DNA of 63,621 nt, counting the filler. It is 6 parts of 6 records of this genome, joined end to end, with 100 filler letters (N's around TTAATTAATTAA, not from the genome) between each part and the next. Parts side by side here need not be neighbours in the genome. Positions count along the whole stretch, not along the records: positions 29,330 to 51,500 come from DRR378314_1290; 5 more parts are not named here. The stretch is one strand, 5' to 3'. Of this stretch, positions 11,931 through 58,219 are shown piece by piece (positions within the stretch are counted from its first letter, which is position 1; every line of letters starts with the position of its first letter). The position numbers and the translations under genes are program-made. The notes under the pieces are model-generated. The model made no database searches and had not been told where the DNA came from. It saw only the letters and a list, made by a program, of their open reading frames with translations.

Positions 11931-12030
11931 NNNNNNNNNNNNNNNNNNNNNNNNNNNNNNNNNNNNNNNNNNNNTTAATTAATTAANNNNNNNNNNNNNN
12001 NNNNNNNNNNNNNNNNNNNNNNNNNNNNNN
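11931..12030. other. Artificial contig spacer
   Basis: Ns flanking TTAATTAATTAA (stops in all frames); composition changes across it. Confidence 0.97.
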
Positions 12031-23394: not shown

Positions 23395-23494
23395 NNNNNN
23401 NNNNNNNNNNNNNNNNNNNNNNNNNNNNNNNNNNNNNNTTAATTAATTAANNNNNNNNNNNNNNNNNNNNNNNNNNNNNNNNNNNNNNNNNNNN
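23395..23494. other. Artificial contig spacer
   Basis: Ns plus TTAATTAATTAA. Confidence 0.97.
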
Positions 23495-26763: not shown

Positions 26764-27492
26764 ATGCAGGAAAGGATTGTAATACTTACCGGCGCCGGAA
26801 TCTCGGCGGAATCCGGTATCAATACGTTTCGCGACGCCGGCGGCCTGTGGGAAAACCACCGCATCGAGGACGTGGCCACCCCGGAAGCCTTCCAGCGCGA
26901 TCCGCATGGCGTGCAAAGCTTCTACAACCGCCGCCGTGAACAATTGCGTGACCCGGCGATCCAGCCCAATGCCGCCCACCGGGCCCTGGCCGAGCTGGAG
27001 CAGGCGCTGCCCGGCCAGGTGCTGGTGGTGACCCAGAACGTGGACGACCTGCACGAGCGCGCCGGCAGCCGGAACGTCATCCACATGCACGGCGAGCTGC
27101 TCAAGGCGCGCTGCCAGAGCACCGATACCCTGGTGCCCGCCGACCGCGATCTGGACCCGGCCCTGAGCTGCACCGTGTGCGGCGCCGCCGGCTGCCTGCG
27201 CCCCCATGTGGTGTGGTTCGGTGAAATGCCCCTGGAGATGGAGCGCATCTACGCCACCCTGGCCGGCTGCGAGCGTTTTATCAGCATCGGCACCAGCGGC
27301 AACGTCTACCCGGCCGCCGGCTTCGTGGCGGAAGCGCGGGCCAGCGGCGCGCACACCACCGAACTCAACCTGGAGCCCTCGGAGCAGCTCACCGCGTTCC
27401 ACGAACACCGTCACGGGCGCGCCACCGAGCTGGTGCCCGCCTATGTCCGCGAACTGCTCAGCGATACCAGCGCCACTCTATCCCGGCAATAG
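26764..27492 (+). CDS. cobB: NAD-dependent protein deacylase (sirtuin)
   Basis: GAGISAESGI, QNVDDLH, HMHG, PHVVWFGE, GTSGNVYPAA; YxxR (YNRR) class III signature. Confidence 0.96.
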   Translation: MQERIVILTGAGISAESGINTFRDAGGLWENHRIEDVATPEAFQRDPHGVQSFYNRRREQLRDPAIQPNAAHRALAELEQALPGQVLVVTQNVDDLHERAGSRNVIHMHGELLKARCQSTDTLVPADRDLDPALSCTVCGAAGCLRPHVVWFGEMPLEMERIYATLAGCERFISIGTSGNVYPAAGFVAEARASGAHTTELNLEPSEQLTAFHEHRHGRATELVPAYVRELLSDTSATLSRQ

Positions 27493-27565
27493 GCTGATTC
27501 CTGCAACGGATTCGGCTAGACTGCCAAAATCCGTCGACACCGAAATAACAGGCATAGCCAGACTC

Positions 27566-28639
27566 ATGAGCCAGAAGCAATTAGACGATCTCAACATCGA
27601 ATCCCAGGAGGTGCTGATCACCCCCCGGGCCCTGAAGGAAAAGCTGCCGCTCAGCGAAGCGGCGGCGGAAACCGTATTCCAGGGTCGCCAGCAGATCCGC
27701 GACATCCTCGACCGCAAGGATCCGCGCCTGTTCGTGGTGATCGGCCCCTGCTCCATCCATGACCCGAAAGCGGCCATGGAATACGCCGAGCGGCTCAAGA
27801 AGCTGGCCGCCGAGGTGGACGACGCCCTGTTTCTGGTACTGCGCGTGTACTTCGAAAAGCCGCGCACCACGGTGGGCTGGAAGGGTCTGATCAACGACCC
27901 TTACATGAACGACTCCTTCAAAGTGCAGGACGGCCTGCACATTGCCCGCAAGCTGCTGCTGGACGTGGCCGAGCTGGGCCTGCCGGCGGCCACCGAGGCG
28001 CTCGACCCGACCACCCCGCAGTACATGCAGGACCTGATCTCCTGGTCGGCGATCGGCGCGCGCACCACCGAATCCCAGACCCACCGGGAGATGTCTTCCG
28101 GCCTGTCCGGCCCGGTGGGCTTCAAGAACGGCACCGACGGCAGCCTGGACGTGGCGGTCAACGCCATGCTCAGCGTCAAGCACCCGCACCGTTTCCTGGG
28201 CATCGACCCGGACGGCCGCGTGGCGCTGACCACCACCAAGGGCAACCCCTACGCCCATGTGGTGCTGCGCGGCGGCGGCGGCAAACCCAACTACGATTCG
28301 GTGTCCGTGGCCCTGGCGGAGAGCGCTCTGGAGAAAGCCGGTGTGTCCACCAACATCATGGTGGATTGCTCCCACGCCAACTCCAACAAGGACCCGAACC
28401 TGCAGCCGCTGGTGATGGAAAACATCGGCAACCAGATTCTGGAAGGCAACAAGTCGATTGTCGGCCTGATGGTGGAATCCCACCTCAAGGGCGGCAACCA
28501 GAAGCTGCCGGCCAATCTGGACGATCTGGAATACGGCGTGTCGGTGACCGACGGCTGCATCGCCTGGGACACCACCGAGCAGAGCATCCGCGATCTCGCC
28601 GACAAGGTGCGCGACACCCTGCCCCGCCGGAATCAGTAG
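27566..28639 (+). CDS. DAHP synthase class I-alpha (AroF/G/H family)
   Basis: GPCSIHD, RVYFEKPRTTVGWKG, IGARTTESQTHRE, DCSHANS. Confidence 0.96.
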   Translation: MSQKQLDDLNIESQEVLITPRALKEKLPLSEAAAETVFQGRQQIRDILDRKDPRLFVVIGPCSIHDPKAAMEYAERLKKLAAEVDDALFLVLRVYFEKPRTTVGWKGLINDPYMNDSFKVQDGLHIARKLLLDVAELGLPAATEALDPTTPQYMQDLISWSAIGARTTESQTHREMSSGLSGPVGFKNGTDGSLDVAVNAMLSVKHPHRFLGIDPDGRVALTTTKGNPYAHVVLRGGGGKPNYDSVSVALAESALEKAGVSTNIMVDCSHANSNKDPNLQPLVMENIGNQILEGNKSIVGLMVESHLKGGNQKLPANLDDLEYGVSVTDGCIAWDTTEQSIRDLADKVRDTLPRRNQ

Positions 28640-28645
28640 CCAGCC

Positions 28646-28671
28646 TTTCGCTTGCAAGGCAAGCTGCCACA
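28646..28671 (-). repeat. REP-like palindrome, copy 2
   Basis: TTTCGCTTGCAAGGCAAGCTGCCACA, nearly identical to 23495-23519. Confidence 0.7.
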
Positions 28672-28710
28672 AAAAAAGCCCCGGCCATTCGGCCGGGGCT
28701 TTTTTGTTTT
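28671..28710. terminator. Bidirectional rho-independent terminator
   Basis: AAAAAAAGCCCCGGCC-ATTC-GGCCGGGGCTTTTTT. Confidence 0.92.
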
Positions 28711-28764
28711 CGGGGACCGGCCCCCGCCGCGAACGGCGGGACACCGATCAAACCGTGGTTGCCG

Positions 28765-29229
28765 TTACGGCGCCAGACCGCCGAGCAGGTCCGGCAGGCC
28801 GGTCAGCAGTTCGGGCAGGTTCTGCCCCGCTTCCAGCAAACATTCGAACGGCAGGGTCGGGCTGAGGCCGCCGGCGCCGGCTTCCGGGCACAGCTGCCCG
28901 GTCACCGGATCAGCGGAGCCTTCACCGCCTTCACCGCCGCCCAGGCCGCCGAGCAGGTCCTGGAGCTGGCTCAGGCTACCGCCGGCTTCCATCAGGCAGT
29001 CCAGCGGCGTGGTCGGACCCACTTCGTCTTCCAGTGCCAGCGGGCAGATCTGCGCCAGGCCGTCGCTCAAACCCGGGATTTCCGGGATGCCGCCGGTGCC
29101 GCCGTCGCCACCGGGGGCGCCGGGCAGGTTGCCCAGGGCTTCGGTGAAGCAGGCCGCCGGATCAAGCTGCTCGGCGCCGGAGGCCGCCGGGCACAGCGCG
29201 TCGGTGAGCGGGTTGCTGCCGCCCAGGCC
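28765..29229 (-). CDS. Gly-rich protein with Cys-pair repeats, 5'-truncated
   Basis: Open frame to the contig end with GC3-rich codons; three CP-x12-14-C[FL]xEA units. Confidence 0.75.
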   Translation of the reverse strand, partial: GLGGSNPLTDALCPAASGAEQLDPAACFTEALGNLPGAPGGDGGTGGIPEIPGLSDGLAQICPLALEDEVGPTTPLDCLMEAGGSLSQLQDLLGGLGGGEGGEGSADPVTGQLCPEAGAGGLSPTLPFECLLEAGQNLPELLTGLPDLLGGLAP

Positions 29230-29329
29230 NNNNNNNNNNNNNNNNNNNNNNNNNNNNNNNNNNNNNNNNNNNNTTAATTAATTAANNNNNNNNNNNNNNN
29301 NNNNNNNNNNNNNNNNNNNNNNNNNNNNN
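29230..29329. other. Artificial contig spacer
   Basis: Ns plus TTAATTAATTAA. Confidence 0.97.
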
Positions 29330-29558
29330 AGCTAATTGTGTTTATCAAACTAAACAAAAGTCAAAGAAGGACAATTACTTAGTGCAGATGTGTCCTTTAT
29401 CTTGACAATCTTTTCAATCTTCTTGTAAGCCGTCCTATGTCATCAATCACTTTTCAATAGGTGCCAGCCATGACAATGATTCCCCGAAGGCCAAATTTCT
29501 GAACATCCAAGCCTATTAGGTCCATATTGTGCCCAGAAATACAATAAGAACGAGGTGG

Positions 29559-29585
29559 TGATGACATTTTTAAAAGGGTTCGATA
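29559..29585 (+). promoter_or_regulatory. Putative ECF-sigma promoter, copy 1
   Basis: TGATGACA-TTTTTAAAAGGGTT-CGATA (14-nt spacer), 33 nt before ATG 29619. Confidence 0.72.
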
Positions 29586-29618
29586 TATGGGTATATATGA
29601 AACCTTAAACCATCGATT

Positions 29619-30851
29619 ATGAGAACACCGTCTTTTTTTGGGTATGGTCGGCTGTTGCCCGTCTTACTCTTAACATTGTTGATTTCCTGTAGTTCTGGGG
29701 ATGGAGAGGCACCACCCGAGCCCAACAGCAATCCAAACCAAAACCTTGATCCTGAACCGGAGCCTGAGCCCGAACCCGAACCCGTAACACAAAATGATAT
29801 CGGTGTGGTCGATGACGCAGTATCCGGATTTATGGCCCAGTATGGAGTCCCCGGGGCCGCCTTGGCCGTCAGCGTGGAGGAAAAAATGGTCTATTCCAAA
29901 GGATACGGCAAGGCCAATGTGGAGAACGATATCGATGTGTCGCCGGATCACCTTTTTCGGATAGCCAGTATCTCAAAGGTGTTTACGGCAACGGCCATAC
30001 TAAAGCTTGTAGATGATGGCTTGGTGTCCCTGGATGAACCTGTCTTCGGCCCCGAGGGTATATTGGGGGGTGATTTTGGGACAGCGGTTCTCACCGAGGA
30101 TGAACTCGACATTACCGTGGATGACCTCTTGTTGCATGCTTCAGGCGGTTGGGGCACATCCACCGGGGGAGATCCCATTGACTACCAGCCCAATCTTGGG
30201 GCTTCCGATTTTATCGAGTATGTATTGAACAACTGGTCGCTGAGCAATGCCCCGGGAGAGGTGTTCAGCTATAGCAACATGGGATATTGGCTTTTGGCTC
30301 GAATCATTGAGGAAAGGTCCGGTGAACCCTATGAAGCATACCTCAAAGGGCTGCTTTCACCCTTGGGGATAAACTCGTTTGAGGTAACGAACTTTCGGGA
30401 GGATGACCTGGGGGCAAATGAAGTACATTATTATGGCGCAGAGGGCGATGCACCATACATTTTCACGATTGCCTCGAGAAGGGATGGAGATGCCGGTGTT
30501 GTGATCAGTGCGCCAGATTTGCTACGATTTTTGTGCGCCATCGATGGGGCACCGGAGAGACCCGATCTATTGACCTCTGGTTCAACAGCATTATTGTCCG
30601 AGACCACCGAACTGTCCAATCTGGGCAGGGGTCTAGCCGTGTGGCCGGAACAGCAATTGACCTATTTTACGGGAAGTCTTCCGGGAAACCGTTCGTGGAT
30701 GATGATCGCTGAAAATGGACATACCGCCACCATTGTTTTGAACATGAGAAGGACGGATACCTCGGCTTTCGATAACGACCTGCAATCCCTCCTATTGAAT
30801 ATCGTGAAGGATGGAAACATTCCATGGCAAACCGATTTGAACCAGTTCTAG
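29619..30851 (+). CDS. Serine hydrolase (beta-lactamase class C-like) lipoprotein
   Basis: Lipobox LISC, (PE)n linker, SxxK (SISK), YSN motif. Confidence 0.9.
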   Translation: MRTPSFFGYGRLLPVLLLTLLISCSSGDGEAPPEPNSNPNQNLDPEPEPEPEPEPVTQNDIGVVDDAVSGFMAQYGVPGAALAVSVEEKMVYSKGYGKANVENDIDVSPDHLFRIASISKVFTATAILKLVDDGLVSLDEPVFGPEGILGGDFGTAVLTEDELDITVDDLLLHASGGWGTSTGGDPIDYQPNLGASDFIEYVLNNWSLSNAPGEVFSYSNMGYWLLARIIEERSGEPYEAYLKGLLSPLGINSFEVTNFREDDLGANEVHYYGAEGDAPYIFTIASRRDGDAGVVISAPDLLRFLCAIDGAPERPDLLTSGSTALLSETTELSNLGRGLAVWPEQQLTYFTGSLPGNRSWMMIAENGHTATIVLNMRRTDTSAFDNDLQSLLLNIVKDGNIPWQTDLNQF

Positions 30852-30874
30852 GTGGTTCGTTCAAAACCCATATT

Positions 30875-32134
30875 ATGACTACAAAAACCTTAAAAATTAA
30901 ACACAGCCTTATGAAAAGACCAATGCTAATGGTGATTTCCTGTCTCTTGATCGTTTCCTGTTGGGGAAGATATAGTACCAATGCAGACGAAGTGGATGCC
31001 GAAGAAACCGGATATTTCGATAGGACCATTGATGAGGAGTTGGAAGATGATACGCTGGATGGCCGGGAATACGGGCTGTCTTCAGCGCTTGCACCTTCAA
31101 GCTCCACCAAAACACATCAACTAATAGATGCCCGGACAGGCCTTGTAGTGAACAGTACCGAATATCCCTCCAATTGGAATGTGATTTCCAAGCCTTCCTA
31201 TACCATTGATCAAAAGCTGCCCACTTTTTTGATACAGATCACGGGCCCGGACCACTTGAATAGTTTCAATACCCCCATTGCATATCATGTCGATTACCAA
31301 GACCCACAAATGGCCCAATTGATGTACAATACCCCCTATGGTAAAATGATCAGACACTTGGCCAGTCCCCAACAGATTTTCAACGAGGAGGTAAAGGGCC
31401 GTATGGCCAAGAGTGGTTTTGAATATCTGGGGGATCGTGAACAGCCCGAAGTGACACGGTACCTCAGGAACAAGATCGCCTCCAAATCAGGGATGGACAC
31501 GGCCCTATCGATCTACAATACCGAGTGGAAAAATTCCAAGGGCCAAAAGGCCATGACAAGTGTTTCGGTCATAAGCATGGAACAGCCGACCATATCCGGC
31601 AACATGATGGTCTGGTTCTATACGGTCAATTACACCTTTGTGGATGAATCTGCATATGAAAAGACACTTGAACTGATGAAGGCGGCCACCTTCAGCTATA
31701 GGGAAAACCCACAATGGGAAGAATATGTGAACCGATTGGGGCAGCAAAGGGCACGGGAAAATCAAAGAAGGGCACAATTGGCAGCCGCCCAGCATCAAAA
31801 CAGGATGCAGGCAAGGTGGAGCGCTTTCAATGCACATCAGGACAAAATGAAGGGGATTTGGGCCGCCCAGGATGCCAACCATGCTTCCTTTATGAACCGG
31901 AATTTTGGTGCAGGCAGCGATACGGGCCAACGCCAGTTCATCAATATGATCAATGAAGAGGAAACGGTGTACAATCCGCTTACCGGAAACAATTATCAAG
32001 TGAACGCAGGCTCCACGGAGTATTGGATGGACAGTGATGGGAATTACATCCGCAACGATGATCTATTCTATACCCCAAATGGGGACATCAATCTCAATAA
32101 CCGCGAATGGGTCAGGGTCGAGAACGCCCATTGA
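30875..32134 (+). CDS. Hypothetical, probable lipoprotein
   Basis: Long ORF, lipobox-like IVSC, Gln/Ala-rich coiled segment, C-terminal YNPLTGNNYQV...YWMDSDGNYI region; start may be 30911. Confidence 0.8.
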   Translation: MTTKTLKIKHSLMKRPMLMVISCLLIVSCWGRYSTNADEVDAEETGYFDRTIDEELEDDTLDGREYGLSSALAPSSSTKTHQLIDARTGLVVNSTEYPSNWNVISKPSYTIDQKLPTFLIQITGPDHLNSFNTPIAYHVDYQDPQMAQLMYNTPYGKMIRHLASPQQIFNEEVKGRMAKSGFEYLGDREQPEVTRYLRNKIASKSGMDTALSIYNTEWKNSKGQKAMTSVSVISMEQPTISGNMMVWFYTVNYTFVDESAYEKTLELMKAATFSYRENPQWEEYVNRLGQQRARENQRRAQLAAAQHQNRMQARWSAFNAHQDKMKGIWAAQDANHASFMNRNFGAGSDTGQRQFINMINEEETVYNPLTGNNYQVNAGSTEYWMDSDGNYIRNDDLFYTPNGDINLNNREWVRVENAH

Positions 32135-32158
32135 TGACATTTTTGAATAACCACGATA
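32132..32158 (+). promoter_or_regulatory. Putative ECF-sigma promoter, copy 2
   Basis: TGATGACA-TTTTTGAATAACCA-CGATA (14-nt spacer), 26 nt before ATG 32185. Confidence 0.72.
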
Positions 32159-32184
32159 TGTAATAAACCTCTAAACTCAAAGCA

Positions 32185-32565
32185 ATGAAACATGTTAAAA
32201 TAATTTATGTGATCCTTGTCCTTGCTGTTGGCCTATCCTGTTCAACTGATAACGGCAATGAATCCCAAGAACAGGCCATCTTCGCAGGAAATTGGTCAGG
32301 AACCTATACGGGGGGTGACAGCGGCACTTGGACCGCAACCATCGACTCGAACGGCTCGGTGGAGGGGGAGGCCTTTTCCAATAATATGCAACAATCCCTT
32401 CCCTTGAACGGCAGTATTGATACCTCTGGGGATTTCAGGGCCACGGTGGGTTCGGCGATGAACGGTGCAACATTTAAAGGTGCCTTTGCCTCAAATCGGG
32501 GCAGTGGCACATGGGAGAACAACACGGACCAAATTTCAGGTAGTTGGACAGGAACCAAGGATTAA
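32185..32565 (+). CDS. Small beta-rich lipoprotein
   Basis: Lipobox GLSC; repeated GxW motifs (GNWSG, SGTWT, SGTWE, SGSWT). Confidence 0.85.
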   Translation: MKHVKIIYVILVLAVGLSCSTDNGNESQEQAIFAGNWSGTYTGGDSGTWTATIDSNGSVEGEAFSNNMQQSLPLNGSIDTSGDFRATVGSAMNGATFKGAFASNRGSGTWENNTDQISGSWTGTKD

Positions 32566-32598
32566 TTAAAAACGAGAACCGAATATAATACACCAAAT

Positions 32599-34848
32599 AT
32601 GAAAATTCCATATCAAAAAATTGTAATTGCATGGTTTGTTTTGGCGCTAACCATGGCTTGTAGCTCCAATGACAACGGGACCGACCCAATGACCGATGAT
32701 GATTTCTCACAGACAGATGACGATCCTACACCTACAGACGATGACCCTGGCAACGGTGAAGGCTATGAAATGGCGGATGTTCAAGTGTTGTTGCCCGAAA
32801 ATGCGGATGTAGATCTTACCAATGCCACATTGGCATCAATGGGTGCCGATTCCGATGTAGATGCCAGTGGGATGGGGAAATTGCCGTTGAACAGTGGTTC
32901 CGTTGAATCGGGATATCTGCTGGATGCGGACAACCACGTTTTACTTGCAGGTTTTATTTCGGAAGACAGGAAGGAAGTCTCCGTCGAGACCACTGCCGAA
33001 CTGATGGTATACTATGCACTGGGTTATCACTTATTGCCCGAGAGTGGAAAAAGTGCTTTTTTGAAAAGTATAGGGCAAGTTCCTGGATTCCCAAATTTTG
33101 TGGGAGAAATTCGAACATTGTTCAAGAACAACCCCCTTATGTACAGCGAAGGGGGTTATGAAGCGTCATTGCAGGCTTTCTTGAATCAAATAACGGCAAA
33201 ACATTCGGGGGGGCTCGAAAACCGGATTTTTTTCAATGATGAAAATACCAAAAGCGGAGTGACATTATCAAGTGTCGATTCCACTAGGATAAAGTTGCAA
33301 AATTCCCTGGCAAGAAGGTCCAGGGTCGTCATTTACAAGAAGAGCTACAAGAATAGAAGCGGAGATCTTTTTGAGATACCAAATTATACCTCAAGTACCT
33401 TTGCCAATTTTAAATTGGAGTCTGGCGGCTCCAACGCCATACAGGAACTGGAAGTGGGGAACTCGCTCCAACAGATAAATGCGCAACAGGCATCCATAGA
33501 CAATGCGATAGCAACAGATCCCATCCTTTTGCCGGTAGACCCAGACACTGAATTGGTGGCCGAATATGAAGTGGTCGTCATCGGTTCTGGTCAACGCAAC
33601 ATCGAAGTTAGGGACATGACCGCCGAAGAACTGGAAATCTATACCGAAATCAATAAGGAGACCTATGTCATCGATTATTTTTTGCCCACCTTGCTTGATG
33701 TGGGCGGCAACAAATCATTGCTGCCACCATTTGGAAGTGACAAGGAAAATGCGCTTTACAATGCGGTACTTCCTGTTCTTGAACAATATCCCGATGTGAT
33801 TGATGCGGTGGTGGAGAACGAGTTCAAGGAAGCCACTGAAATCTTTCTTCCCGCTCTGTATGAAGATGTCCGTTTGAGCAATGACCTAAGGGCCCTATTA
33901 ACGGATGTGTACGCCATATTGTCCGGCAACGGAGACTTTCCGAATACGTTCATACAGACCCAAGAGTTGATCGAAACAGGTTATGAAAGAACAAAGTACA
34001 TTTTGGCCACAATCGATAAAAATATCAAGGCAACCAATTATTACGCCAATTTCAACGGTCTACGTACGACAGCCTTCAATTTTGAACGTTGGGAGGTCAA
34101 GTCCATCGATGCCGTGGTGGAGCTGCAACAGGACAACGTTTCGCTCTGTCTGGGCGAGGCAACGGAACTGCGTGCAAGCGCAATTACCGATTATGACCCG
34201 GAAGTGGAGGACTTTGAATTCCATTGGAGCACTTCGAACGATTTTGGGGGAAGGGTCCAGGACATTGGCGGCGACCCCAACAATTTTGGAGCCTCCATTG
34301 TCACGACCAATAATTTTGTGTCCTATATCAGTACCGCACTTGATTCAGAATTGGGCGGAGGGGACAATCTGGAGACCGTCACCGTGATATTGTATTTCCG
34401 AAACAAGAATACGGACGAACTCACCGAGGCCGGGCGGGACACTATGACCGTGAACAACAAAAAGGGTTGTGAGTCCTTTACGGCATCTTTCGTAAGACAG
34501 CCCAATTTCAGGGAAATCTCAAGCTCGAGTCTACTTTGTTCGGGTGGTCCAGAGTACCAGGCATTTAGCCCCATACCATACGCTGCTGATTTTCCCGCGG
34601 TGGAGAATGCGGTCGGCTATAGGGTCATCATTACCGCGAGCAATGGTGCGGTAAACCCGGAACGGGTTCTGGACCAGAACCAACTAGAGGATATTGGAAA
34701 TGGGATGTTGCGTTATCATTCAGGTGTTGGCAGTATCGTGATTTTTAATAGTTGCAATGCAGGTGAGGCCGAGGCCTATGCACAGCAGTTGGTCGACAAT
34801 ATCAATGTGGAACCCTCTACCATGGAAATCACACCCATTTTTAATTAG
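32599..34848 (+). CDS. Large hypothetical lipoprotein (749 aa)
   Basis: Lipobox TMAC followed by an acidic D/T/P linker. Confidence 0.85.
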   Translation: MKIPYQKIVIAWFVLALTMACSSNDNGTDPMTDDDFSQTDDDPTPTDDDPGNGEGYEMADVQVLLPENADVDLTNATLASMGADSDVDASGMGKLPLNSGSVESGYLLDADNHVLLAGFISEDRKEVSVETTAELMVYYALGYHLLPESGKSAFLKSIGQVPGFPNFVGEIRTLFKNNPLMYSEGGYEASLQAFLNQITAKHSGGLENRIFFNDENTKSGVTLSSVDSTRIKLQNSLARRSRVVIYKKSYKNRSGDLFEIPNYTSSTFANFKLESGGSNAIQELEVGNSLQQINAQQASIDNAIATDPILLPVDPDTELVAEYEVVVIGSGQRNIEVRDMTAEELEIYTEINKETYVIDYFLPTLLDVGGNKSLLPPFGSDKENALYNAVLPVLEQYPDVIDAVVENEFKEATEIFLPALYEDVRLSNDLRALLTDVYAILSGNGDFPNTFIQTQELIETGYERTKYILATIDKNIKATNYYANFNGLRTTAFNFERWEVKSIDAVVELQQDNVSLCLGEATELRASAITDYDPEVEDFEFHWSTSNDFGGRVQDIGGDPNNFGASIVTTNNFVSYISTALDSELGGGDNLETVTVILYFRNKNTDELTEAGRDTMTVNNKKGCESFTASFVRQPNFREISSSSLLCSGGPEYQAFSPIPYAADFPAVENAVGYRVIITASNGAVNPERVLDQNQLEDIGNGMLRYHSGVGSIVIFNSCNAGEAEAYAQQLVDNINVEPSTMEITPIFN

Positions 34849-34940
34849 AACTTGTACTTTGTCGATGAAACCGTGCACCGGACTTTTAAATTACCCAAAA
34901 AGATGAATTTTTGTAAATTCCCCATACTTTCAATTGAAGT

Positions 34941-35507
34941 ATGGGGAAAACCTTGCAGACAACAAATAACCCACAGGTCACCGCATTCAAAAAAAATGAC
35001 AGGCAGGCCATGCAAGAGGTATATGAACATACGTTTCCAAAATTTAGGAGCCACGTCTTCAGGAACAGTGGGGATGAAGCGGAGGCGAAGGATGTTTTTC
35101 AAGACGCCTTTGTTGCTTGCTGGAGAAATATCAAGGATGACAAGTTTGACGGCGCAGGAAGTGTTGAAGGCTACCTGTACACCATAGCTAGGAACAAATG
35201 GACCGATCACTTGCGTTCCGCTCGGTTCAGAAAAACCGTGGGATCGGAGGGCCTTTCCAAAGTGGTGCAAGAAGTGGGCGATGATTCCGGTGGGGAGCTG
35301 GACGATAAAAGGGAAACCATGCTTAAGGCATTGGATCAACTGGGAGATGCCTGTCAACGGCTTTTGGGTCTTTTTTATTACGAGAGAAAGACAATGAAGC
35401 AGGTGGCCAAGGACCTTGGCATTGCGGCCACATCTGCCAGAAATAAAAAATATAGGTGCATGGAACGTTTGCGTTCGCTTGCGGAACATATAACAAGAAA
35501 TGGATAG
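34941..35507 (+). CDS. ECF sigma-70 family RNA polymerase sigma factor
   Basis: Region 2 EAKDVFQDAF...YLYTIARNKW; region 4 LGDACQRLL...MKQVAKDLG...ARNKKYRC. Confidence 0.93.
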   Translation: MGKTLQTTNNPQVTAFKKNDRQAMQEVYEHTFPKFRSHVFRNSGDEAEAKDVFQDAFVACWRNIKDDKFDGAGSVEGYLYTIARNKWTDHLRSARFRKTVGSEGLSKVVQEVGDDSGGELDDKRETMLKALDQLGDACQRLLGLFYYERKTMKQVAKDLGIAATSARNKKYRCMERLRSLAEHITRNG

Positions 35508-36237
35508 GGAAGAAGCATATTGGACAAGGGAGGAGCAAGAGCTGTTCGAAAGTTGTCTTTTGGACCAGATGACACCTGCGGAAAAAGCCGGTTTTGAGTC
35601 AAGGATGGCCTCGGACCCGACGCTCAAGGCCAAGTTTTTGGAATTTAAGGCCCTTTTCGGAGCTATTGAAGAGGCTGGACTCCGCCTTGCCATGGACCAT
35701 TTTCACGAGGGAGTTCAAGACGATGCAAAAGAAAGGCGACTTTCCACTGCCTCTAGAACGGTATATCGCATGGCAGCAGCAATAGCTGTGTTGATGACCT
35801 TGGGGGGCATATGGTATTTTTATTATCCCAATGCCAATGAAAGGCTCTTTGCTGCATATTACACCCCCGACCCGGGACTGCCAACGGTCATGGGCAACAG
35901 TGACAACTATATGTTTTACGAAGCCATGGTGGACTATAAACAAGAGGATTATGGTACCGCCCTTCAAAAGTGGAAAGGCCTATTGCCGGGGAAAATGGAC
36001 AATGACACGCTCAATTATTTTATGGGATCGGCCCATTTGGCCAAGGGTGAGGCCGATAAGGCCATCAGGTTTTTTGACCGTGTGCTGGTGCACGACAGCA
36101 CCCCCTTTCGGAGCGAGGCGGCTTTTTACAAAGGCCTGGCCCACCTTAAAATGAACGAGGTGCGGGAGGCGCTCAAAAGTCTGGAGCATACCTCGGATGA
36201 CAGGGCAAGGGAATTGGCACAAAAACTCAAGGACTGA
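35500..36237 (+). CDS. Anti-sigma-like single-pass membrane protein with C-terminal TPR
   Basis: Overlaps the sigma stop; N-terminal LLDQMTPAEKAGFESRMASDP helix bundle, TM AAAIAVLMTLGGIWYF, TPR helices (YFMGSAHL, FYKGLAHL). Confidence 0.82.
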   Translation: MDREEAYWTREEQELFESCLLDQMTPAEKAGFESRMASDPTLKAKFLEFKALFGAIEEAGLRLAMDHFHEGVQDDAKERRLSTASRTVYRMAAAIAVLMTLGGIWYFYYPNANERLFAAYYTPDPGLPTVMGNSDNYMFYEAMVDYKQEDYGTALQKWKGLLPGKMDNDTLNYFMGSAHLAKGEADKAIRFFDRVLVHDSTPFRSEAAFYKGLAHLKMNEVREALKSLEHTSDDRARELAQKLKD

Positions 36238-36243
36238 TCTGGC

Positions 36244-39200
36244 ATGGGCAAAGGGTGGGTATATATATTTTTTGGGCTTGCCCTTTTCTTGCAGACGGGC
36301 CTATATGCGCAACATAGGCATCCGGTGCTGAAACAGCTGGACAGCCTTATCTCAGTGGATGGGTTTGATGCTGCACAGCATATCATTGGAGAGGTCATTT
36401 CGGGGGAAACAACATACCCGTTCCTCAATGAGGGCCGATTGGTCTATCCCCTTGCCAAGTCGGAATTTCTATTGGACCCGGAGACGGAATTCCCAAAGGC
36501 GCAGGAACTGTTGAAAATGATCCGATCGAACCATAAGGCGGATTCCACGGCATATGAGGCACTCTTGGGACTGGGGCTGGCGCATATCGATCAAGGGAGC
36601 GCGGTTCAGGCCAAAGCGTACATCACCCAAGCCAATCGATTGGCCGTTGGCCTTGAGGATGCACAAAGAATGGTGGCCTCGGAATTTCATCTGAGCGAGG
36701 TGGGCTTGAAACTTGGGGACATGAACCAATTGATGGAACGGACCAACAGGGCCCTGCAGTTGATGGGGGAACATCCAGGAACACAGTTCCCTTTGGCACC
36801 CAGGATATTGAATTACAAGGGATCGCTGATGTACTTTACGGCGAAGCCCGACAGTGCCGACTATTATTTTGAAAAGGCCATCCAGAGCATTGACACTTTG
36901 AACACCGATCCGGAACAGCGGTATTACCTGCCCGGTACCATTTATGGTAACTGGACCATGCTCAAACAGAGCGAGAATGATTTGGAGAAAGCGATGGCAC
37001 TTACCTTAAAGAGCATTGCAAATTTCAATGCATTCCTGAAAGGAACCCATAACCATCCCTTGACGGAAAAGGTACGCTTCAACCTGTCGATCTCCTATCG
37101 AAATTTGGGCAGTCTGTACAATGATTTCGGCGATAAGGAAAAGGCCATCCAAGTGGCCACTTTGGGCTATCACCATGCCAAAAAGCACTTTCTTCCCAAC
37201 ACGGTACAATATTTCAGTGCCGTATTGATGATGGGGGAGGCACACCTCTATGGGGAAGAACAGCAAAAGGCTCGAAAGTACCTCCAAGAGGCCGAGGCAT
37301 CATTGCAGGAGATACCGGGGGACAACTGGGCCTATGCCGCCAACCTGTATTACACCTTGGCGGATCTTGATAAAAGAACGGGGGATCTCCCAAGTGCCAT
37401 TGCGCACTACGAAAGAACATTGGAGGCCTACGGCAACAGCAATTCCGAGGAGTTTAGCCAGAACAGTATCTATGCGAGGGCGAATTTGGCCCAAAGCCTT
37501 GCCGAGAACGGACAGTTTGGCAAAGCGCAGGACCTTTTGGAAGAGACATATGCCAAGGTGCTCGCCAGCTATGGACAGTGGAGCCATCTGTCCAAAATGT
37601 TACAGCTTACCAAGGTGAGGATGTTCTTTTTAAAGGGTGATTTCGAACAAGCCATCCAGCTCTGTGAGGGTTTGTTGGAGGCCCGTGGCGATCAGGACCT
37701 GCAGAACAGGCCCTATCTATGGGGTGAACGGACCGAAATTCTGTTATATCTGGCCAAGTCGAAATTGGGATTGGGTCCCCATTCCCAAAACCAGCTTGAG
37801 GCAGTGGGGAAAATCCTTGATCGGGCCATATCTCTGGTGGAAAAGCGCAAATCCCTGGTCACCTCCCAGGAAGGGGTGGCCAATTTGATCGAAAGCAGTC
37901 GAGAAACCTTCGATCTGGGTAAAAAGGTCTATCTGAAGCTATATGACCAAACCGGGGACAAGGCCCATCTTGAAAAGGTCATGGCCCTTCATGAGTCCTC
38001 GATCTACAACCGTATAAGGGCGCGCTTGAACCTAAGGGGGAATGAAATGATCCCAAAAGAAGTTCGGGAACGGGAAGGTCGGTTGCGAGAGGAAATAAAT
38101 ACTTTTTTTGATGTTGGAGATGACGAAACACAGTTCAATGTGGCCATCTGGGATTCCCTCAACAGGGCATGGCAGGACCATATGCGTTTCCTTCAAAAGG
38201 AGCATCCGAAGTACTATGGGATGCGGTACGCTTCCATAGTGGAACCCTTGCGGGACTTGGAGAGGCAAGTTCCGCCGAACACCACACTGGTGCGTTACTT
38301 CTCGGATGGTGATGATCATTATGCCTACGTTTACCATGGGGGGGAGGCCGAGTTGATGGCATTGGGGCAATACGACGCAGCTTGTATATCCACCATTTCG
38401 GACTACGGGGCTGTCGGGGAAGAGCTTTTTGATTGCCTTTATGAGCTCTACCAAAGATTGTGGAGGCCTTTGGAAGGTCTTGTCCAGACAGAACAGGTCA
38501 TCATCTTTCCCGATGGGGAGCTCTTCAACCTGGCCTTTGAACTGCTCACTCCAAAAAGGATACAATCCCATAGGGAATTGGCAACAAGCAGTTTGCTGGC
38601 CAAACATATCCTTTCGTACAACTACAGTCTGTTCATGCTGGGCGAAAACAAGAAGGTCGTGGGGTACAAGGACGACTTCATTGCCTTTGCCCCTGAGTTT
38701 GACCAAGAAATGAAGACCCGGTATCAAATGTCGATTGCCGATTCGTTGTTTTTGGACAAAACCTATCTGACCCTTTTGCCGCAACCGTTCAGCACCGCAT
38801 TAGTGAAAAAATTCAGCCGGAGATTTGACGGAAGTTCATTTTTGAACGAAAGGGCCTCCAAACCCTTGTTTATCCAAAATGCCAATGAACACAAGATCAT
38901 TCATATTGGGACCCATGCCGAATCCAATAATGTGAGTCCCGAACTTTCACGCCTGGTATTCGCCAAGAATGTCTCAAACCCTTCGGATATCAACGACAAT
39001 TACCTATACACCTATGAAATCTACAACCAAGATCTCGGGTCCAATTTGGCCATACTGACGGCCTGTGAGACAGGAAAGCCGACCTACCAGCCTGGGGAGG
39101 GGATGATATCATTGGCACATGCGTTTAACTATGCGGGCAGTGAAAGTGTGCTGACCAGCCTTTGGCAAATCGATGAAGAATCGAGCAGCCAATTGTTGGA

Positions 39201-39474
39201 AAGCTTTTACGGCCACTTGATGGAGGGCAGACGCAAGGATGAGGCCCTTCGCTTGGCCAAACTGGAGTATCTGGCTCATGCGGAAGGTCGTACCCTGCAT
39301 CCACAATATTGGGCGGGACTGGTCTTGATGGGGGACACCTCACCCATACACTTTACCCAAGATAAACTTTGGCCTTTTGGAATCTTAGTTGGGTCATTGC
39401 TATTTATTTTGTTGGTTTTTTTTCTGGTAAAAAAGAAAAGCTCCCCAAAGGGAGCTGATCCAAACAAGAGCTAA
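36244..39474 (+). CDS. TPR-CHAT (caspase-like) protease with signal peptide and C-terminal membrane anchor
   Basis: Signal peptide ending LYA-Q; TPRs; CHAT motifs IIFPDGEL..LAFELL, IIHIGTHA (His), LTACETG (Cys), SLWQIDE, HPQYWAG; TM GILVGSLLFILLVFFLV-KKK. Confidence 0.92.
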   Translation: MGKGWVYIFFGLALFLQTGLYAQHRHPVLKQLDSLISVDGFDAAQHIIGEVISGETTYPFLNEGRLVYPLAKSEFLLDPETEFPKAQELLKMIRSNHKADSTAYEALLGLGLAHIDQGSAVQAKAYITQANRLAVGLEDAQRMVASEFHLSEVGLKLGDMNQLMERTNRALQLMGEHPGTQFPLAPRILNYKGSLMYFTAKPDSADYYFEKAIQSIDTLNTDPEQRYYLPGTIYGNWTMLKQSENDLEKAMALTLKSIANFNAFLKGTHNHPLTEKVRFNLSISYRNLGSLYNDFGDKEKAIQVATLGYHHAKKHFLPNTVQYFSAVLMMGEAHLYGEEQQKARKYLQEAEASLQEIPGDNWAYAANLYYTLADLDKRTGDLPSAIAHYERTLEAYGNSNSEEFSQNSIYARANLAQSLAENGQFGKAQDLLEETYAKVLASYGQWSHLSKMLQLTKVRMFFLKGDFEQAIQLCEGLLEARGDQDLQNRPYLWGERTEILLYLAKSKLGLGPHSQNQLEAVGKILDRAISLVEKRKSLVTSQEGVANLIESSRETFDLGKKVYLKLYDQTGDKAHLEKVMALHESSIYNRIRARLNLRGNEMIPKEVREREGRLREEINTFFDVGDDETQFNVAIWDSLNRAWQDHMRFLQKEHPKYYGMRYASIVEPLRDLERQVPPNTTLVRYFSDGDDHYAYVYHGGEAELMALGQYDAACISTISDYGAVGEELFDCLYELYQRLWRPLEGLVQTEQVIIFPDGELFNLAFELLTPKRIQSHRELATSSLLAKHILSYNYSLFMLGENKKVVGYKDDFIAFAPEFDQEMKTRYQMSIADSLFLDKTYLTLLPQPFSTALVKKFSRRFDGSSFLNERASKPLFIQNANEHKIIHIGTHAESNNVSPELSRLVFAKNVSNPSDINDNYLYTYEIYNQDLGSNLAILTACETGKPTYQPGEGMISLAHAFNYAGSESVLTSLWQIDEESSSQLLESFYGHLMEGRRKDEALRLAKLEYLAHAEGRTLHPQYWAGLVLMGDTSPIHFTQDKLWPFGILVGSLLFILLVFFLVKKKSSPKGADPNKS

Positions 39475-39495
39475 TTAATATTGCTGAAAACTATT

Positions 39496-40266
39496 TTATC
39501 CCTGGTTGTTGGGGACATTGGGATTGTTGTCGTCGGGATCCTCGTTGGCGGGGACTCCGTCATTGTCATTGTCCACAAAAGTGCCGTCCCTCCCCACGAA
39601 GAGCTGGAAATTTATGGGCAGGAAAGTGTCCATGACCTGATCATTGTACTCATTGCTCGGGGCCGACGTGACCGAAATGGCAGAAAATGTGCCGCCGGCA
39701 AGATAGGTGGACCTTACCCAGACCTGGGCGGTTATGCCATTGAAACGGAGCAAGCGGGCCTCGAATTGGGAGGGTATCCCCTCGAAGGAGTTGTTGGCCG
39801 AGCTGATGCACAATACATCGGGGGTGCCATTGAAACCGTAGTGGGCGAACACCCCATTGATCTCATTGGCTATGATGGACCTGGCGGCGACCTGTCCTTG
39901 GAGTTGTGTGTTCGGAATCCATCGAAATACTACGGCATTGTCGTTGCGCACGAGATTGACACCAAGTGTCCCAGTCTGAGCATCGGTCAACTCAAAGGCA
40001 GAAAACCCTTGGGGATAGACAAATCCGATAAGGGGGTGCTGACTATGGACAAACTGTCCGCCCGGATTGTTCACTGTTGGCACTTGGGACAAGGGGGCCG
40101 GAATGGAATTGGCAAACTCCCAATAGATGCCGGTGAGCCCGGGGGCATTTTCACAAAGGCCCTGAGGCTCGGCATTGGCCAGGCCATTGTTGGAATCTGA
40201 ATCTGAACTGCAGCCAAATAGGCATAGGGCAATCGTTGAGAGGAATAGGGTTGGAATACGTTTCAT
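39496..40266 (-). CDS. Hypothetical lipoprotein with C-terminal Asp-rich (TSP3-like) motif
   Basis: MKRIPTLFLSTIALCLFG-C lipobox; DNDNDGVPANEDPDDNNP. Confidence 0.85.
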   Translation of the reverse strand: MKRIPTLFLSTIALCLFGCSSDSDSNNGLANAEPQGLCENAPGLTGIYWEFANSIPAPLSQVPTVNNPGGQFVHSQHPLIGFVYPQGFSAFELTDAQTGTLGVNLVRNDNAVVFRWIPNTQLQGQVAARSIIANEINGVFAHYGFNGTPDVLCISSANNSFEGIPSQFEARLLRFNGITAQVWVRSTYLAGGTFSAISVTSAPSNEYNDQVMDTFLPINFQLFVGRDGTFVDNDNDGVPANEDPDDNNPNVPNNQG

Positions 40267-40286
40267 GATATGTTTCTTTTTCCTAG

Positions 40287-40313
40287 TATCGAGGAAAAGG
40301 GGAAATGTCATCA
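40287..40313 (-). promoter_or_regulatory. Putative ECF-sigma promoter, copy 3
   Basis: Minus strand TGATGACA-TTTCCCCTTTTCCT-CGATA (14-nt spacer), 20 nt before ATG 40266. Confidence 0.72.
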
Positions 40314-40577
40314 GGATAGCTTTGGAAAAGAAGAAATGGGGCGGGATGATGGATTTTATGCTCACCGAATAGGTCACCTAATTGTTGGGAATAGGATTGT
40401 TGAACAGTTATTAATTTCATAAGTCATGTTAAGCATAAGTATTACTATGTTCAGCATAGATTTAATTGTTCAATTAATCTGTTCAATAGTCAGCTTTGGT
40501 TGGAGGTACGATTATACCGTAAATTGCCTCTGGTCAATAGTTCAAATAGGGATCTAGAAAGATAAGTATACCATATA

Positions 40578-40737
40578 TTACTGTTTTAGCAGTAATTTTT
40601 AATTTTTGTACTAGTTTAACTAGAGAGCTTGGTAATAACAATCAAAATTACTGTTATAGCGGTAAAATTAATAATATTAATTACTTTTTAAACCTATTTG
40701 ATAAATAAAACACTTATATTTACCGTTAAAACGGTAA
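40578..40737. promoter_or_regulatory. Three 18-bp palindromic operators upstream of hipB
   Basis: TTACTG-TTTTAG-CAGTAA (40578-40595), TTACTG-TTATAG-CGGTAA (40648-40665), TTACCG-TTAAAA-CGGTAA (40720-40737). Confidence 0.8.
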
Positions 40738-40740
40738 TAT

Positions 40741-40950
40741 ATGGTTGATTTAGGTTTACTGGTCAAAAAGCATCGCAAGAAAGCGGGGCTGACACAGCTT
40801 GAACTGGCCAATTTGGCCGGTATAGGTAAGACAACCGTCTTTGATATCGAAAAAAACAAGGAGACTGTTCGTTGGAGCAACATCCTTGCCGTGCTCCAGG
40901 TATTGAACATAGAAGTGGAATTTAAAAGCCCATTGACTGAAAACGGATGA
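40741..40950 (+). CDS. hipB: HipB-like XRE HTH antitoxin/regulator
   Basis: RKKAGLTQLELANLAGIGKTTVFDIEKNK; first gene of an overlapping triad. Confidence 0.88.
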   Translation: MVDLGLLVKKHRKKAGLTQLELANLAGIGKTTVFDIEKNKETVRWSNILAVLQVLNIEVEFKSPLTENG

Positions 40951-41261
40951 GAAAGGCAGTAGTATATGCCCATGGAAAAAGGGCGGGTATTTTAACGGAA
41001 ATCTCTCCTCGGGAGTATATGTTTACATATGATGATGATTACAGTGGTCAGGCGATTTCATTGACCATGCCCGTTGATCAAAAGGAATTCAGTTTCAATG
41101 GGTTCCCTCCCTTTTTTGAAGGATTGTTGCCTGAAGGTATCATGTTGGAAGGACTACTTAGGATTTCCAAAATTGACCACAATGATTATTTCTCCCAATT
41201 AATGGCCACCGGTGCTGATTTGGTAGGCGCAGTAACTGTAAAACCTATGGAAGATGAATAG
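40947..41261 (+). CDS. hipS: HipA N-terminal domain protein (HipS-like antitoxin)
   Basis: AGILTE..YMFTYD..ISLTMP..PPFFEGLLPEG..GADLVGAV. Confidence 0.88.
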   Translation: MRKAVVYAHGKRAGILTEISPREYMFTYDDDYSGQAISLTMPVDQKEFSFNGFPPFFEGLLPEGIMLEGLLRISKIDHNDYFSQLMATGADLVGAVTVKPMEDE

Positions 41262-42177
41262 GTGCCCTATCACATATGAACCCTGTGGTACGGCAAAATA
41301 TAGTAAAAAAGGTCTCAAAATGATTGCTGCCAAGTTAACTGGTTTAAATGATTTGCCCTATACAGCATCCGAATTACGGAGAGAGGCGGCAAACAGGGCG
41401 AAGAAATTATCCATACAGGGGGTACAGCCTAAATTAAGTGCTAGTATTTCCGTAGTCGAACAAGAATTTAAAGTAGTGGACCAATTCGGAACCTATATCA
41501 TAAAACCTCAAAATGATATTTTTCCGGAATTACCGGAGAATGAGGACCTGACCATGCGCATGGCCATGTTCCTCGGTATAAATGTGCCCTTTCATGGAAT
41601 GGTTTATGGCAAGGATGGCAGTCTGTCCTATTTTATCAAGCGTTTTGACAGATATGGTAAAGGGAAAAAATATGCAACGGAAGATTTTGCCCAATTGACT
41701 GGAAATACCAGGGATACCAAGTATCGTTTTAGTATGGAGAAATTGGTACCCGTTATCGAAGAATTTTGTACGTTTCCTGTGGTTGAGAAAGTGGAATTCT
41801 TCAAGAGAATAGTTTTTTGTTTTGTGACTGGAAATGAGGATATGCACCTTAAAAACTTTTCTCTAATTACAAAGAATGGCAAAACGACGCTGGCACCTGC
41901 TTACGATTTGTTGAACTCCTCCATTGCGATCAAAAACCCTGAAGAAGAAATTGCATTGACCCTGAAAGGAAAAAAAAGTAATTTAAAAGCATTGGATTTT
42001 ACGGATTATTATGCAAGGGAGCGATTGCAATTGAACGAAAAAACCATTGAATCCATACTTCAGGACATGTTTAAGGCAAAACAGAAATGGGAGGAGCTCA
42101 TATCGATTTCTTTTCTATCCGATGACATGAAAGAAAAGTATTCCAAAATACTGGAACATCGGTTGAAAATGTTTTAA
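41254..42177 (+). CDS. hipT: HipA-family kinase toxin (HipT-like)
   Basis: Gly-loop SIQGVQPK, YIIKP, ENE, KRFDR, GNEDMHLKNFS, LAPAYD. Confidence 0.92.
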   Translation: MNRCPITYEPCGTAKYSKKGLKMIAAKLTGLNDLPYTASELRREAANRAKKLSIQGVQPKLSASISVVEQEFKVVDQFGTYIIKPQNDIFPELPENEDLTMRMAMFLGINVPFHGMVYGKDGSLSYFIKRFDRYGKGKKYATEDFAQLTGNTRDTKYRFSMEKLVPVIEEFCTFPVVEKVEFFKRIVFCFVTGNEDMHLKNFSLITKNGKTTLAPAYDLLNSSIAIKNPEEEIALTLKGKKSNLKALDFTDYYARERLQLNEKTIESILQDMFKAKQKWEELISISFLSDDMKEKYSKILEHRLKMF

Positions 42178-42654
42178 CGATTCGTTTATTGGTGTCTTAA
42201 GATCAAATCGATGTACTTTCCAATGAAGTATTTTATCCATACATACAACTTCATATTGTCATTTCACGATTGGATAATCGGATTTTTTCCGATTATGTAT
42301 GATTTTTTTGACAACTGCATTGAATTGGTTGCAAGTGTGTATCAGTCAGGATTTATTTGATGTATTGGAAAATAAAGGTGACATTTTGGTAAATAAACCT
42401 CCCATTTTGGTTTGATGAATTACCATATACACGACAAAAACCTGTCACATCCCTATGAAAAAACAGTCCTTTTCAATAAGATTATGACTTGATATTACCC
42501 AATAAAAGGAAACTATCGTATGGTGGTTTGACGAATTGGATTATTTTGTGGGATAGGAAATTCGCAAATTGGAACCATTTTCTCTGTATAAAGAAAGGTC
42601 GTTTTCCTGCATTCCAATTTGGTTGAAGAAAACTATGGTGCTTATTTTGATGCT

Positions 42655-51500: not shown

Positions 51501-51600
51501 NNNNNNNNNNNNNNNNNNNNNNNNNNNNNNNNNNNNNNNNNNNNTTAATTAATTAANNNNNNNNNNNNNNNNNNNNNNNNNNNNNNNNNNNNNNNNNNNN
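51501..51600. other. Artificial contig spacer
   Basis: Ns plus TTAATTAATTAA. Confidence 0.97.
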
Positions 51601-58119: not shown

Positions 58120-58219
58120 NNNNNNNNNNNNNNNNNNNNNNNNNNNNNNNNNNNNNNNNNNNNTTAATTAATTAANNNNNNNNNNNNNNNNNNNNNNNNN
58201 NNNNNNNNNNNNNNNNNNN
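58120..58219. other. Artificial contig spacer
   Basis: Ns plus TTAATTAATTAA. Confidence 0.97.

Follow-up and report, generated by a model that had tools for sequence, protein, structure and literature searches.

The DNA examined here is a stretch of 63,621 nucleotides (nt), called the window throughout, in which three exact copies of a bipartite motif lie around a gene for a sigma factor of the extracytoplasmic function (ECF) type (34941–35507) and its neighbors, which encode a putative anti-sigma factor and a TPR-CHAT protease. Judged from sequence, the three motifs are very probably the cognate promoters of this sigma factor. TGATGACA, extended by TTTT, would be the -35 element and CGAT(A/G/T) the -10 element, with 14 nt between TGATGACA and CGAT, and the start of transcription would probably fall about 9 nt downstream of CGAT. 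As promoters go, this is an ordinary kind; its consensus, the sigma family and the arrangement in which the CHAT protein is encoded apart from the anti-sigma factor appear to be undescribed in the searchable literature.

The window contains five N44-TTAATTAATTAA-N44 spacers and is thus a chain of separate contigs whose pieces should not be taken for neighbors. Their G+C content ranges from 0.35 to 0.71, with a drop from ~0.64 to ~0.48 at the spacer preceding piece 29330–51500, and the motifs and the sigma/CHAT genes all lie within that piece. The initial annotation of this DNA had claimed three exact bipartite copies, each directed at a lipoprotein start codon 20–33 nt away, with identical fixed parts and spacing and 11 variable nucleotides, and had noticed no copy elsewhere in the contig. 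Pattern searches bore this out. Exact matches to TGATGACATTT-N11-CGATA in the window numbered three, against a mean of 0.00 and a largest count of 0 in 100 dinucleotide-preserving shuffles, and the full pattern TGATGACATTTNNNNNNNNNNNCGATA places them at the positions listed in Table 1. The shorter pattern TGACA-N14-CGATA finds the same three sites only over the entire window (shuffle mean 0.10, largest 1). The ATG follows CGATA at a distance of 33 nt (ATG 29619), 26 nt (32185) and 20 nt (40266), counted from the last base of CGATA, and each of the three products starts with a signal peptide and carries a lipobox (LLISC, VGLSC and LFGC, respectively). The 11 spacer bases vary among the three copies. 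Copy 2 begins with the TGA stop codon (32132–32134) of the gene 30824–32134, so a coding end and the predicted promoter overlap there. A scan with a sigma-70-type consensus, which is uninformative for a Bacteroidota genome, gave 22 promoter-like sites against 17.5 expected.

The same arrangement recurs around related sigma genes. We compared 80 loci (designated by L numbers) around relatives of the window sigma factor that are 37–96% identical to it, 1,448,365 bp in total. TGATGACA-N14-CGAT occurs at 125 sites in 61 of the loci. With other spacings, N15 gave 16 sites and N10–13 and N16–19 gave zero or one each, and the reversed control pattern gave none in these 1,448,365 bp. Taking N14 and N15 together, the motif is present in 71 of the 80 loci. 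An ATG open reading frame (ORF) start (at least 50 amino acids, aa) follows within 150 nt at 104 of 141 sites, and in 59 of those 104 it follows at 20–39 nt. A site on the same strand lies no more than 5 kb upstream of the sigma gene in 64 of the 80 loci, and no more than 300 nt upstream in 21. Positions outside the search pattern are conserved too. Among 122 unique sites, each T of the TTTT that follows TGATGACA is kept in 81–90%, the base after CGAT is G, A or T and never C, and a purine stands 9 nt after CGAT in 119; the predicted starts in the window were placed from this purine. The fixed positions persist while spacers and flanks have fully diverged among the loci, and the 12 positions of the pattern are kept at orthologous places even where the sigma factor is only 37–56% identical to that of the window. 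Across the 80 loci, rigid spacing, directionality and nearness to genes are those of a bipartite -35/-10 promoter. The motif also stands upstream of the sigma factor's own operon across these loci, in the window itself only by way of read-through inferred from copy 2.

The motif likewise follows the sigma family from genome to genome. In the 4-Mb genome of the closest relative, Flagellimonas okinawensis, all three occurrences of the 12-position pattern fall in this locus, and the reversed control has a single match. Allowing one mismatch gave 26 sites there against 5 for the reversed control; the 23 additional ones include one within the CHAT gene of this locus and three copies of one repeated sequence. 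We then turned to a sample of 151 Flavobacteriaceae genomes, 27 of which carry the sigma family, defined by a profile score of at least 178 bits; two genomes fall in between, at 146–155 bits, and weaker matches are ECF paralogues. Of the 27 family genomes, 25 carry the motif, at 85 sites (3.15 per genome), compared with 25 of the 124 genomes without the family, at 31 sites (0.25 per genome; Fisher p = 1.2e-12); the reversed control has 16 sites over all 151 (hand count). Every one of the 25 motif-bearing family genomes has one or more sites no farther than 10 kb from its sigma gene, 44 of the 85 in all. The TTT extension, scored by eye, is found at 47 of the 85 sites in family genomes versus 2 of the 31 elsewhere. 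The initial annotation had proposed that the motif is the recognition site of the adjacent ECF sigma factor, had called for a scan of the genome and its relatives, and had reasoned that equal frequency of the motif in genomes lacking this sigma factor would count against the proposal. The scan, run on the closest relative's genome, the 80 loci and the 151 genomes, found the motif to track the sigma family. Since genomes without the family have the motif less often, the comparison does not refute the proposal, which is supported by this difference and by the rigid spacing among the related loci.

Inside the CHAT gene of relatives is a near-motif with one mismatch, TGTTGACA...CGATG (L001 14209–14235; the window counterpart is at 39152–39173). 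It encodes the conserved peptide TSLWxIDE, so coding probably explains it.

A second ECF sigma factor, paralogous to this one and encoded elsewhere, could in principle read the same ECF-type promoter. Flavobacteriaceae carry many ECF sigma factors, the main text of an ECF classification (PMC7826278) gives an average of 22.5 per genome for Bacteroidetes, and in the F. okinawensis genome the family profile matches two more ECF genes at ~130 bits. Yet genomes with only the weaker paralogues stand at background (9 sites in 7 of 57, hand count), whereas all motif-bearing family genomes have a site within 10 kb of the family's own sigma gene, and the sites within 300 nt upstream of that gene, in 21 of the 80 loci, speak against a paralogue as well. 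We regard a paralogous reader as very unlikely.

There is also little chance that the motif is the site of another transcription factor, acting at housekeeping-sigma promoters and lying near the ECF sigma gene by coincidence. The octamer does hold an imperfect palindrome, ATGACAT, seen on direct reading of the sequence. The site as a whole, however, is directional and bipartite, with one dominant spacing, a short fixed distance to start codons and a purine 9 nt downstream, which is promoter rather than operator geometry. The Bacteroidota housekeeping consensus is TAnnTTTG, and no element like it follows CGAT. Moreover, the ECF sigma factor is the sole DNA-binding protein that travels with the motif; the 80 loci have no other DNA-binding gene in common. 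Finally, the three copies share 16 identical positions within one 11-kb stretch, but that they are remnants of a repeated or mobile element, or chance, with no regulatory role is next to impossible, being already contradicted by the unconserved spacers and flanks, the absence of matches in shuffles and the retention of the 12 fixed positions at orthologous places beside such diverged sigma factors.

Several observations do weigh against reading the motifs as cognate promoters of the ECF sigma factor. The 80 loci are mutually related, so their site counts are not independent events. The exact site is absent in 9 of the 80, and 2 of the 27 sigma-family genomes lack the motif. Of the 85 sites in family genomes, 41 are farther than 10 kb from the sigma gene or belong to a different contig, so either the regulon reaches beyond the locus in some species or a part of these sites arose by chance. 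No motif stands within 300 nt of the sigma gene in the window, and feedback there would therefore depend on putative read-through across 2.8 kb.

Read-through from copy 2 into the sigma gene, giving positive feedback, is plausible from the layout of the genes: those from 32185 to 39474 all read in the same direction, the gaps measure 33 and 92 nt, and a search of the plus strand between 32158 and 34941 found no terminator-like site. Contigs from RNA libraries (four runs, two studies) that are ~97% alike to the window cover 34878–39297, from the sigma to the CHAT gene, and small pieces elsewhere; they carry no start, strand or level and may include DNA, and their thin or missing cover of the lipoprotein genes is not evidence of silence.

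Other placements of the motif are seen near copy 1 and in relatives. A fourth TGATGACA octamer lies on the minus strand at 29438–29445, directed toward the contig end, 114 nt upstream of copy 1 and on the opposite strand; no CGAT stands 14–15 nt from it, and AGAAG is found there instead. Divergent back-to-back pairs of the full motif occur in several relatives (L007 5922–5948 on the minus and 5961–5987 on the plus strand; L008, L047, L048, L062 and L073). One clade of the sigma family, that of Winogradskyella, Psychroserpens, Leeuwenhoekiella and relatives, carries an exact copy within the sigma gene itself, 185–191 nt before its stop codon and ~193 nt before the anti-sigma start (e.g., L014 10366–10392 and L020 10327–10353; further L015, L017, L019, L021, L023, L025, L026, L032, L033, L036, L042, L050, L053, L054 and L058). 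It is present in all 17 loci where identity to the L020 sigma factor reaches 57.6% or more, except that the borderline L071 and L070 (57.5–58.8%) lack it, and L027, outside this clade, has a sigma-internal site at another position. The window sigma gene has no internal copy. Such a site may be an internal promoter for the anti-sigma and CHAT genes, giving negative feedback.

The protein proposed to read the motif belongs to the ECF sigma factors: it has regions 2 and 4 only and a TIGR02937 score of 85.1 bits (cut-off 42.9). Its best relatives among solved structures are SigL, SigW and RpoE. The closest relatives in sequence, at 96% identity, come from F. okinawensis and an Allomuricauda genome bin; the named ones belong to Flavobacteriaceae (Maribacter, Flagellimonas, Muricauda, Pseudozobellia, Tamlana) or to higher Bacteroidota ranks, and most matches are nameless. 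The triad of sigma factor, anti-sigma factor and CHAT protein is kept in the 80 loci (83, 80 and 70 ORF hits, respectively).

The anti-sigma factor is predicted to have a cytoplasmic N-terminal domain, one membrane helix (~88–109) and a periplasmic TPR part. Right after the helix, just outside the membrane, residues 123–131 read PDPGLPTVM (consensus PDPGLPTxM), and D124, G126, L127, T129 and M131 of this segment are invariant in 37 sequences. The CHAT protein begins with a signal peptide and ends with a membrane helix (~1040–1066) that lysines follow; the TPR-CHAT body is therefore expected on the periplasmic side. Its His/Cys catalytic dyad is intact, as far as sequence can tell: H887, H891 and C941 are invariant in 37 sequences and at least 93% conserved in 63 (C-terminal 400 residues aligned).

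We predicted the complex of CHAT residues 190–1038 with anti-sigma residues 105–245 from single sequences, in three runs with three controls. The three runs scored 0.70, 0.70 and 0.71, whereas the best of the 3 controls had 0.00; among solved complexes 51 of 78 attain this mark, and among mismatched pairs 2 of 108. Since craspase with Csx30 and the DdvA dimer, both compared below, are already solved, part of this score may be recall, which tells against the docking. Counting against recall, a search with the CHAT profile of solved structures gave only TPR proteins among the best 60 of 82 matches. At least 87% of contacts were shared between runs, and the predicted local distance difference test (pLDDT) score of the partner was at least 84. 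Confident contacts were predicted between anti-sigma residues 122 and 125–134 and CHAT residues 843–850, 889–891, 939, 975–979 and 1014–1022, which sets the invariant PDPGLPTxM segment beside H891 and C941. The modeled complex supports binding only and demonstrates neither binding nor cleavage, and the docking of this segment at the predicted active site is both the most interesting and the least certain part of the analysis.

Taking these pieces together, we infer a course of events that runs from cleavage of the anti-sigma factor by CHAT to reading of the motif by the sigma factor, with its start site and read-through. In the resting state, the single-pass anti-sigma factor would hold the sigma factor at the inner membrane, and the exported, membrane-anchored TPR-CHAT protein would bind the invariant segment just outside it. 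On an envelope signal, CHAT would make the site-1 cut in the anti-sigma factor, and intramembrane proteolysis would then free the sigma factor to read the three promoters. Copy 1 would drive the serine-hydrolase lipoprotein and the lipoprotein we call 'unk436', copy 2 two lipoproteins and, by read-through, sigma factor, anti-sigma factor and CHAT protein, hence positive feedback, and copy 3 the 256-aa lipoprotein, 'lipo256'.

Judging by the genes behind the motif, the regulon is a set of exported or surface proteins. Among the 104 sites in the 80 loci with a nearby ORF start, 'unk436' is the most frequent direct target (28), followed by 'lipo256' (21), the sigma gene (13, with 8 more at 159–250 nt), the serine-hydrolase lipoprotein (9), the 749-aa family (4) and the 126-aa family (2); other genes account for 27. 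Most of these 27 open with a signal-peptide-like hydrophobic N-terminus, as judged by eye. Leaving aside four that were close copies or very short, we scanned 23 of them against Pfam: six have a type IX secretion system (T9SS) sorting domain, two of these with a subtilase domain; two have YadA-head and phage-depolymerase-like domains; one has Peptidase_S74; two are outer-membrane barrels; one is an fn3 lipoprotein; and 11 have no family. Exported targets of this kind, lipoproteins here and T9SS-sorted subtilases, outer-membrane barrels and fiber-like proteins in relatives, point to remodeling of the cell surface. In L062 (14511–19421) and L024 (14549–17678), two or three tandem genes downstream of CHAT each have their own motif copy, with nearly identical spacers; their secreted products combine YadA-head repeats with a C-terminal domain like that of phage depolymerases.

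Apart from the serine hydrolase, the target lipoproteins themselves gave nothing credible against Pfam at E-values up to 10. In the ESM Atlas, 'unk436' and 'lipo256' fall in nameless Bacteroidota clusters without a Pfam family, those of 'unk436' being Bacteroidota-only. Their models (pLDDT 83 and 85) are weakly PsbP/LpqN-like and weakly PsbP/LpqN/DcrB-like, respectively, with template modeling scores of 0.19–0.50 over the best ten matches per model, which makes this a lead only. A profile comparison of the two with each other found no similarity beyond the signal peptide. The best NCBIfam match of the product of 29619–30851 is of AmpH type, at 68.5 bits far under the cut-off of 266.

The familiar systems built on RpoE/RseA/DegS/RseP and SigW/RsiW combine an autoregulated ECF sigma factor, a single-pass anti-sigma factor, a periplasmic site-1 cut and rigidly spaced -35/-10 promoters with CG in the -10 element (summarized in PMC10028731 and PMC11506125). 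The module described here resembles them in its predicted autoregulation, its single-pass anti-sigma factor, its proposed site-1 cut on the periplasmic side and its rigidly spaced promoters with CG in the -10 element. It differs in that the proposed site-1 protease is an operon-encoded, caspase-like CHAT protein rather than one of PDZ or PrsW type, and in its -35 element, TGATGACA, which is not of AAC type.

A closer parallel is DdvS/DdvA of Myxococcus xanthus. In the accessible portion of the work on that system (PMC11506125), the anti-sigma factor DdvA itself carries a periplasmic TPR-CHAT part, four DdvS-dependent promoters lie in the island, and autoproteolysis by the CHAT domain followed by RseP cleavage is a hypothesis, still unproven; DdvA is there the only CHAT-bearing anti-sigma factor studied, and DdvA-like anti-sigma factors are reported only in Myxococcota and one Comamonas. 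Shared with DdvS/DdvA are an ECF sigma factor held by a single-pass anti-sigma factor, a periplasmic TPR-CHAT part in which the His/Cys dyad is present, several sigma-dependent promoters (here predicted) in the neighborhood of the sigma gene, that of the sigma operon included, and a proposed cut by CHAT close to the membrane helix, with intramembrane proteolysis as the next step. Unlike the DdvA fusion, the anti-sigma factor (245 aa, TPR only) and the TPR-CHAT protein (1076 aa, with its own signal peptide and C-terminal helix) are two genes here. DdvA has a zinc-binding (CHCC) domain, whereas inspection of the N-terminal 87 residues of the present anti-sigma factor finds one Cys (C19) and no HxxxCxxC. 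The DdvS regulon includes the cyclic-oligonucleotide-based antiphage signaling system (CBASS) and CRISPR-Cas, while the targets here are lipoproteins and none of the eight locus proteins matches a defense family in PADLOC. The present family is also found in Bacteroidota rather than in Myxococcota. The module thus works like a split form of DdvS/DdvA and is not a member of that family.

Craspase, of type III-E, offers a second parallel: according to the accessible text of a study of that system (PMC10028731), its TPR-CHAT protein Csx29 cuts Csx30, an inhibitor of the ECF-like CASP-sigma, and its own locus holds three motifs of that sigma factor. The likeness lies in a TPR-CHAT protease that cuts (here by proposal) the inhibitor of an ECF sigma factor, and in three motifs within the sigma factor's own locus. 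Craspase is a cytoplasmic, RNA-guided system that Cas7-11 and target RNA activate, whereas the CHAT protein here is exported, with a signal peptide. No Cas family matched any of the scanned locus proteins (27206–43722), and the only sequence link to craspase is a weak match of the CHAT domain to the Csx29 model (E-value 8.2e-4, 18 bits against a cut-off of 300).

Within the supplement passages covering ECF02–ECF295 of the ECF classification by Casas-Pastor et al. (PMC7826278), the only group described with CHAT neighbors is ECF54 of Actinobacteria, with a predicted GTATCAG / CTCC promoter, subtilase and carboxypeptidase-regulatory-like neighbors, and no anti-sigma factor described. As in ECF54, the sigma factor studied here is encoded near a TPR-CHAT protein. 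Its named relatives are Flavobacteriaceae or of higher Bacteroidota ranks, though, its promoter is TGATGACA / CGAT, and an anti-sigma factor is present. CHAT has no mention in the accessible main text of the classification, and none of the promoter strings TGACA, GATGAC and CGATA occurs in its supplementary text, which may be incomplete (PMC7826278). Literature searches for ECF sigma factors with the CHAT domain in Bacteroidetes found nothing, and for TGATGACA with sigma factors no title among the matches listed named a Bacteroidota ECF promoter.

Table 1. Predicted promoters, genes and spacers in the window; positions count along the whole stretch.
Feature	Position	Strand	Remarks
Predicted promoter copy 1 (TGATGACATTT-N11-CGATA)	29559..29585	+	Predicted start ~29593; orthologous copy L001 4627–4653
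Predicted promoter copy 2	32132..32158	+	Predicted start ~32166
Predicted promoter copy 3, leftward	40287..40313	-	Predicted start ~40279; orthologous copy L001 15350–15376
Lipoprotein, beta-lactamase/penicillin-binding-protein-like serine hydrolase family	29619..30851	+	PF00144, E-value 4.4e-54; first gene behind copy 1
Lipoprotein 'unk436', no known family	ORF from 30824, likely start 30911..32134	+	Likely start is the Met before the lipobox
Small lipoprotein, 126 aa	32185..32565	+	Lipobox; no credible Pfam family
Large lipoprotein, 749 aa	32599..34848	+	No family found; relatives are 14 ORFs in the 80 loci
ECF (group IV) sigma factor, 188 aa, proposed reader of the motif	34941..35507	+	Sigma70_r2, E-value 8.3e-14, and region 4
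Putative anti-sigma factor, 245 aa, periplasmic TPR part	35500..36237	+	NF052375 'antisigma' at residues 20–120, E-value 2.3e-5, below cut-off; TPR
Exported TPR-CHAT (caspase-like) protease, 1076 aa	36244..39474	+	CHAT PF12770, E-value 1.7e-38
Lipoprotein 'lipo256', 256 aa, no known family, behind copy 3	39496..40266	-	Lipobox
Spacers N44-TTAATTAATTAA-N44 (five)	11931–12030, 23395–23494, 29230–29329, 51501–51600, 58120–58219		

Beyond copy 3, an AT-rich gap (40558–40757) holds repeated palindromes, ATTACTGTTTTAGCAGTAA, at 40577–40595 and 40647–40665, with a related one within 40708–40757 that was read by eye from an inverted-repeat arm. Downstream of them lies a HipA-like kinase in two overlapping ORFs, with the N-terminal domain at 40947–41261 and the C-terminal domain at 41254–42177. 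The palindromes may be operator sites of a toxin-antitoxin-like unit.

With the promoter assigned, the regulon of an ECF sigma family in marine Flavobacteriaceae, present in 27 of the 151 sampled genomes, can be mapped without experiment. It is conceivable, if somewhat doubtful, that the module is a widespread device of Bacteroidota in which a separate, periplasmic, membrane-anchored CHAT protein acts as site-1 protease, recognizes PDPGLPTxM and so frees a sigma factor that turns on a small set of genes for surface proteins and lipoproteins through TGATGACA-N14-CGAT. With the protease and its presumed substrate encoded apart, intact catalytic residues and an invariant anti-sigma segment predicted to lie at the active site, cleavage can be tested directly. 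If the proposal is true, this would be the first setting in which to reconstitute the CHAT-driven cleavage of an anti-sigma factor, proposed and unproven for DdvA, and to map the cut site.

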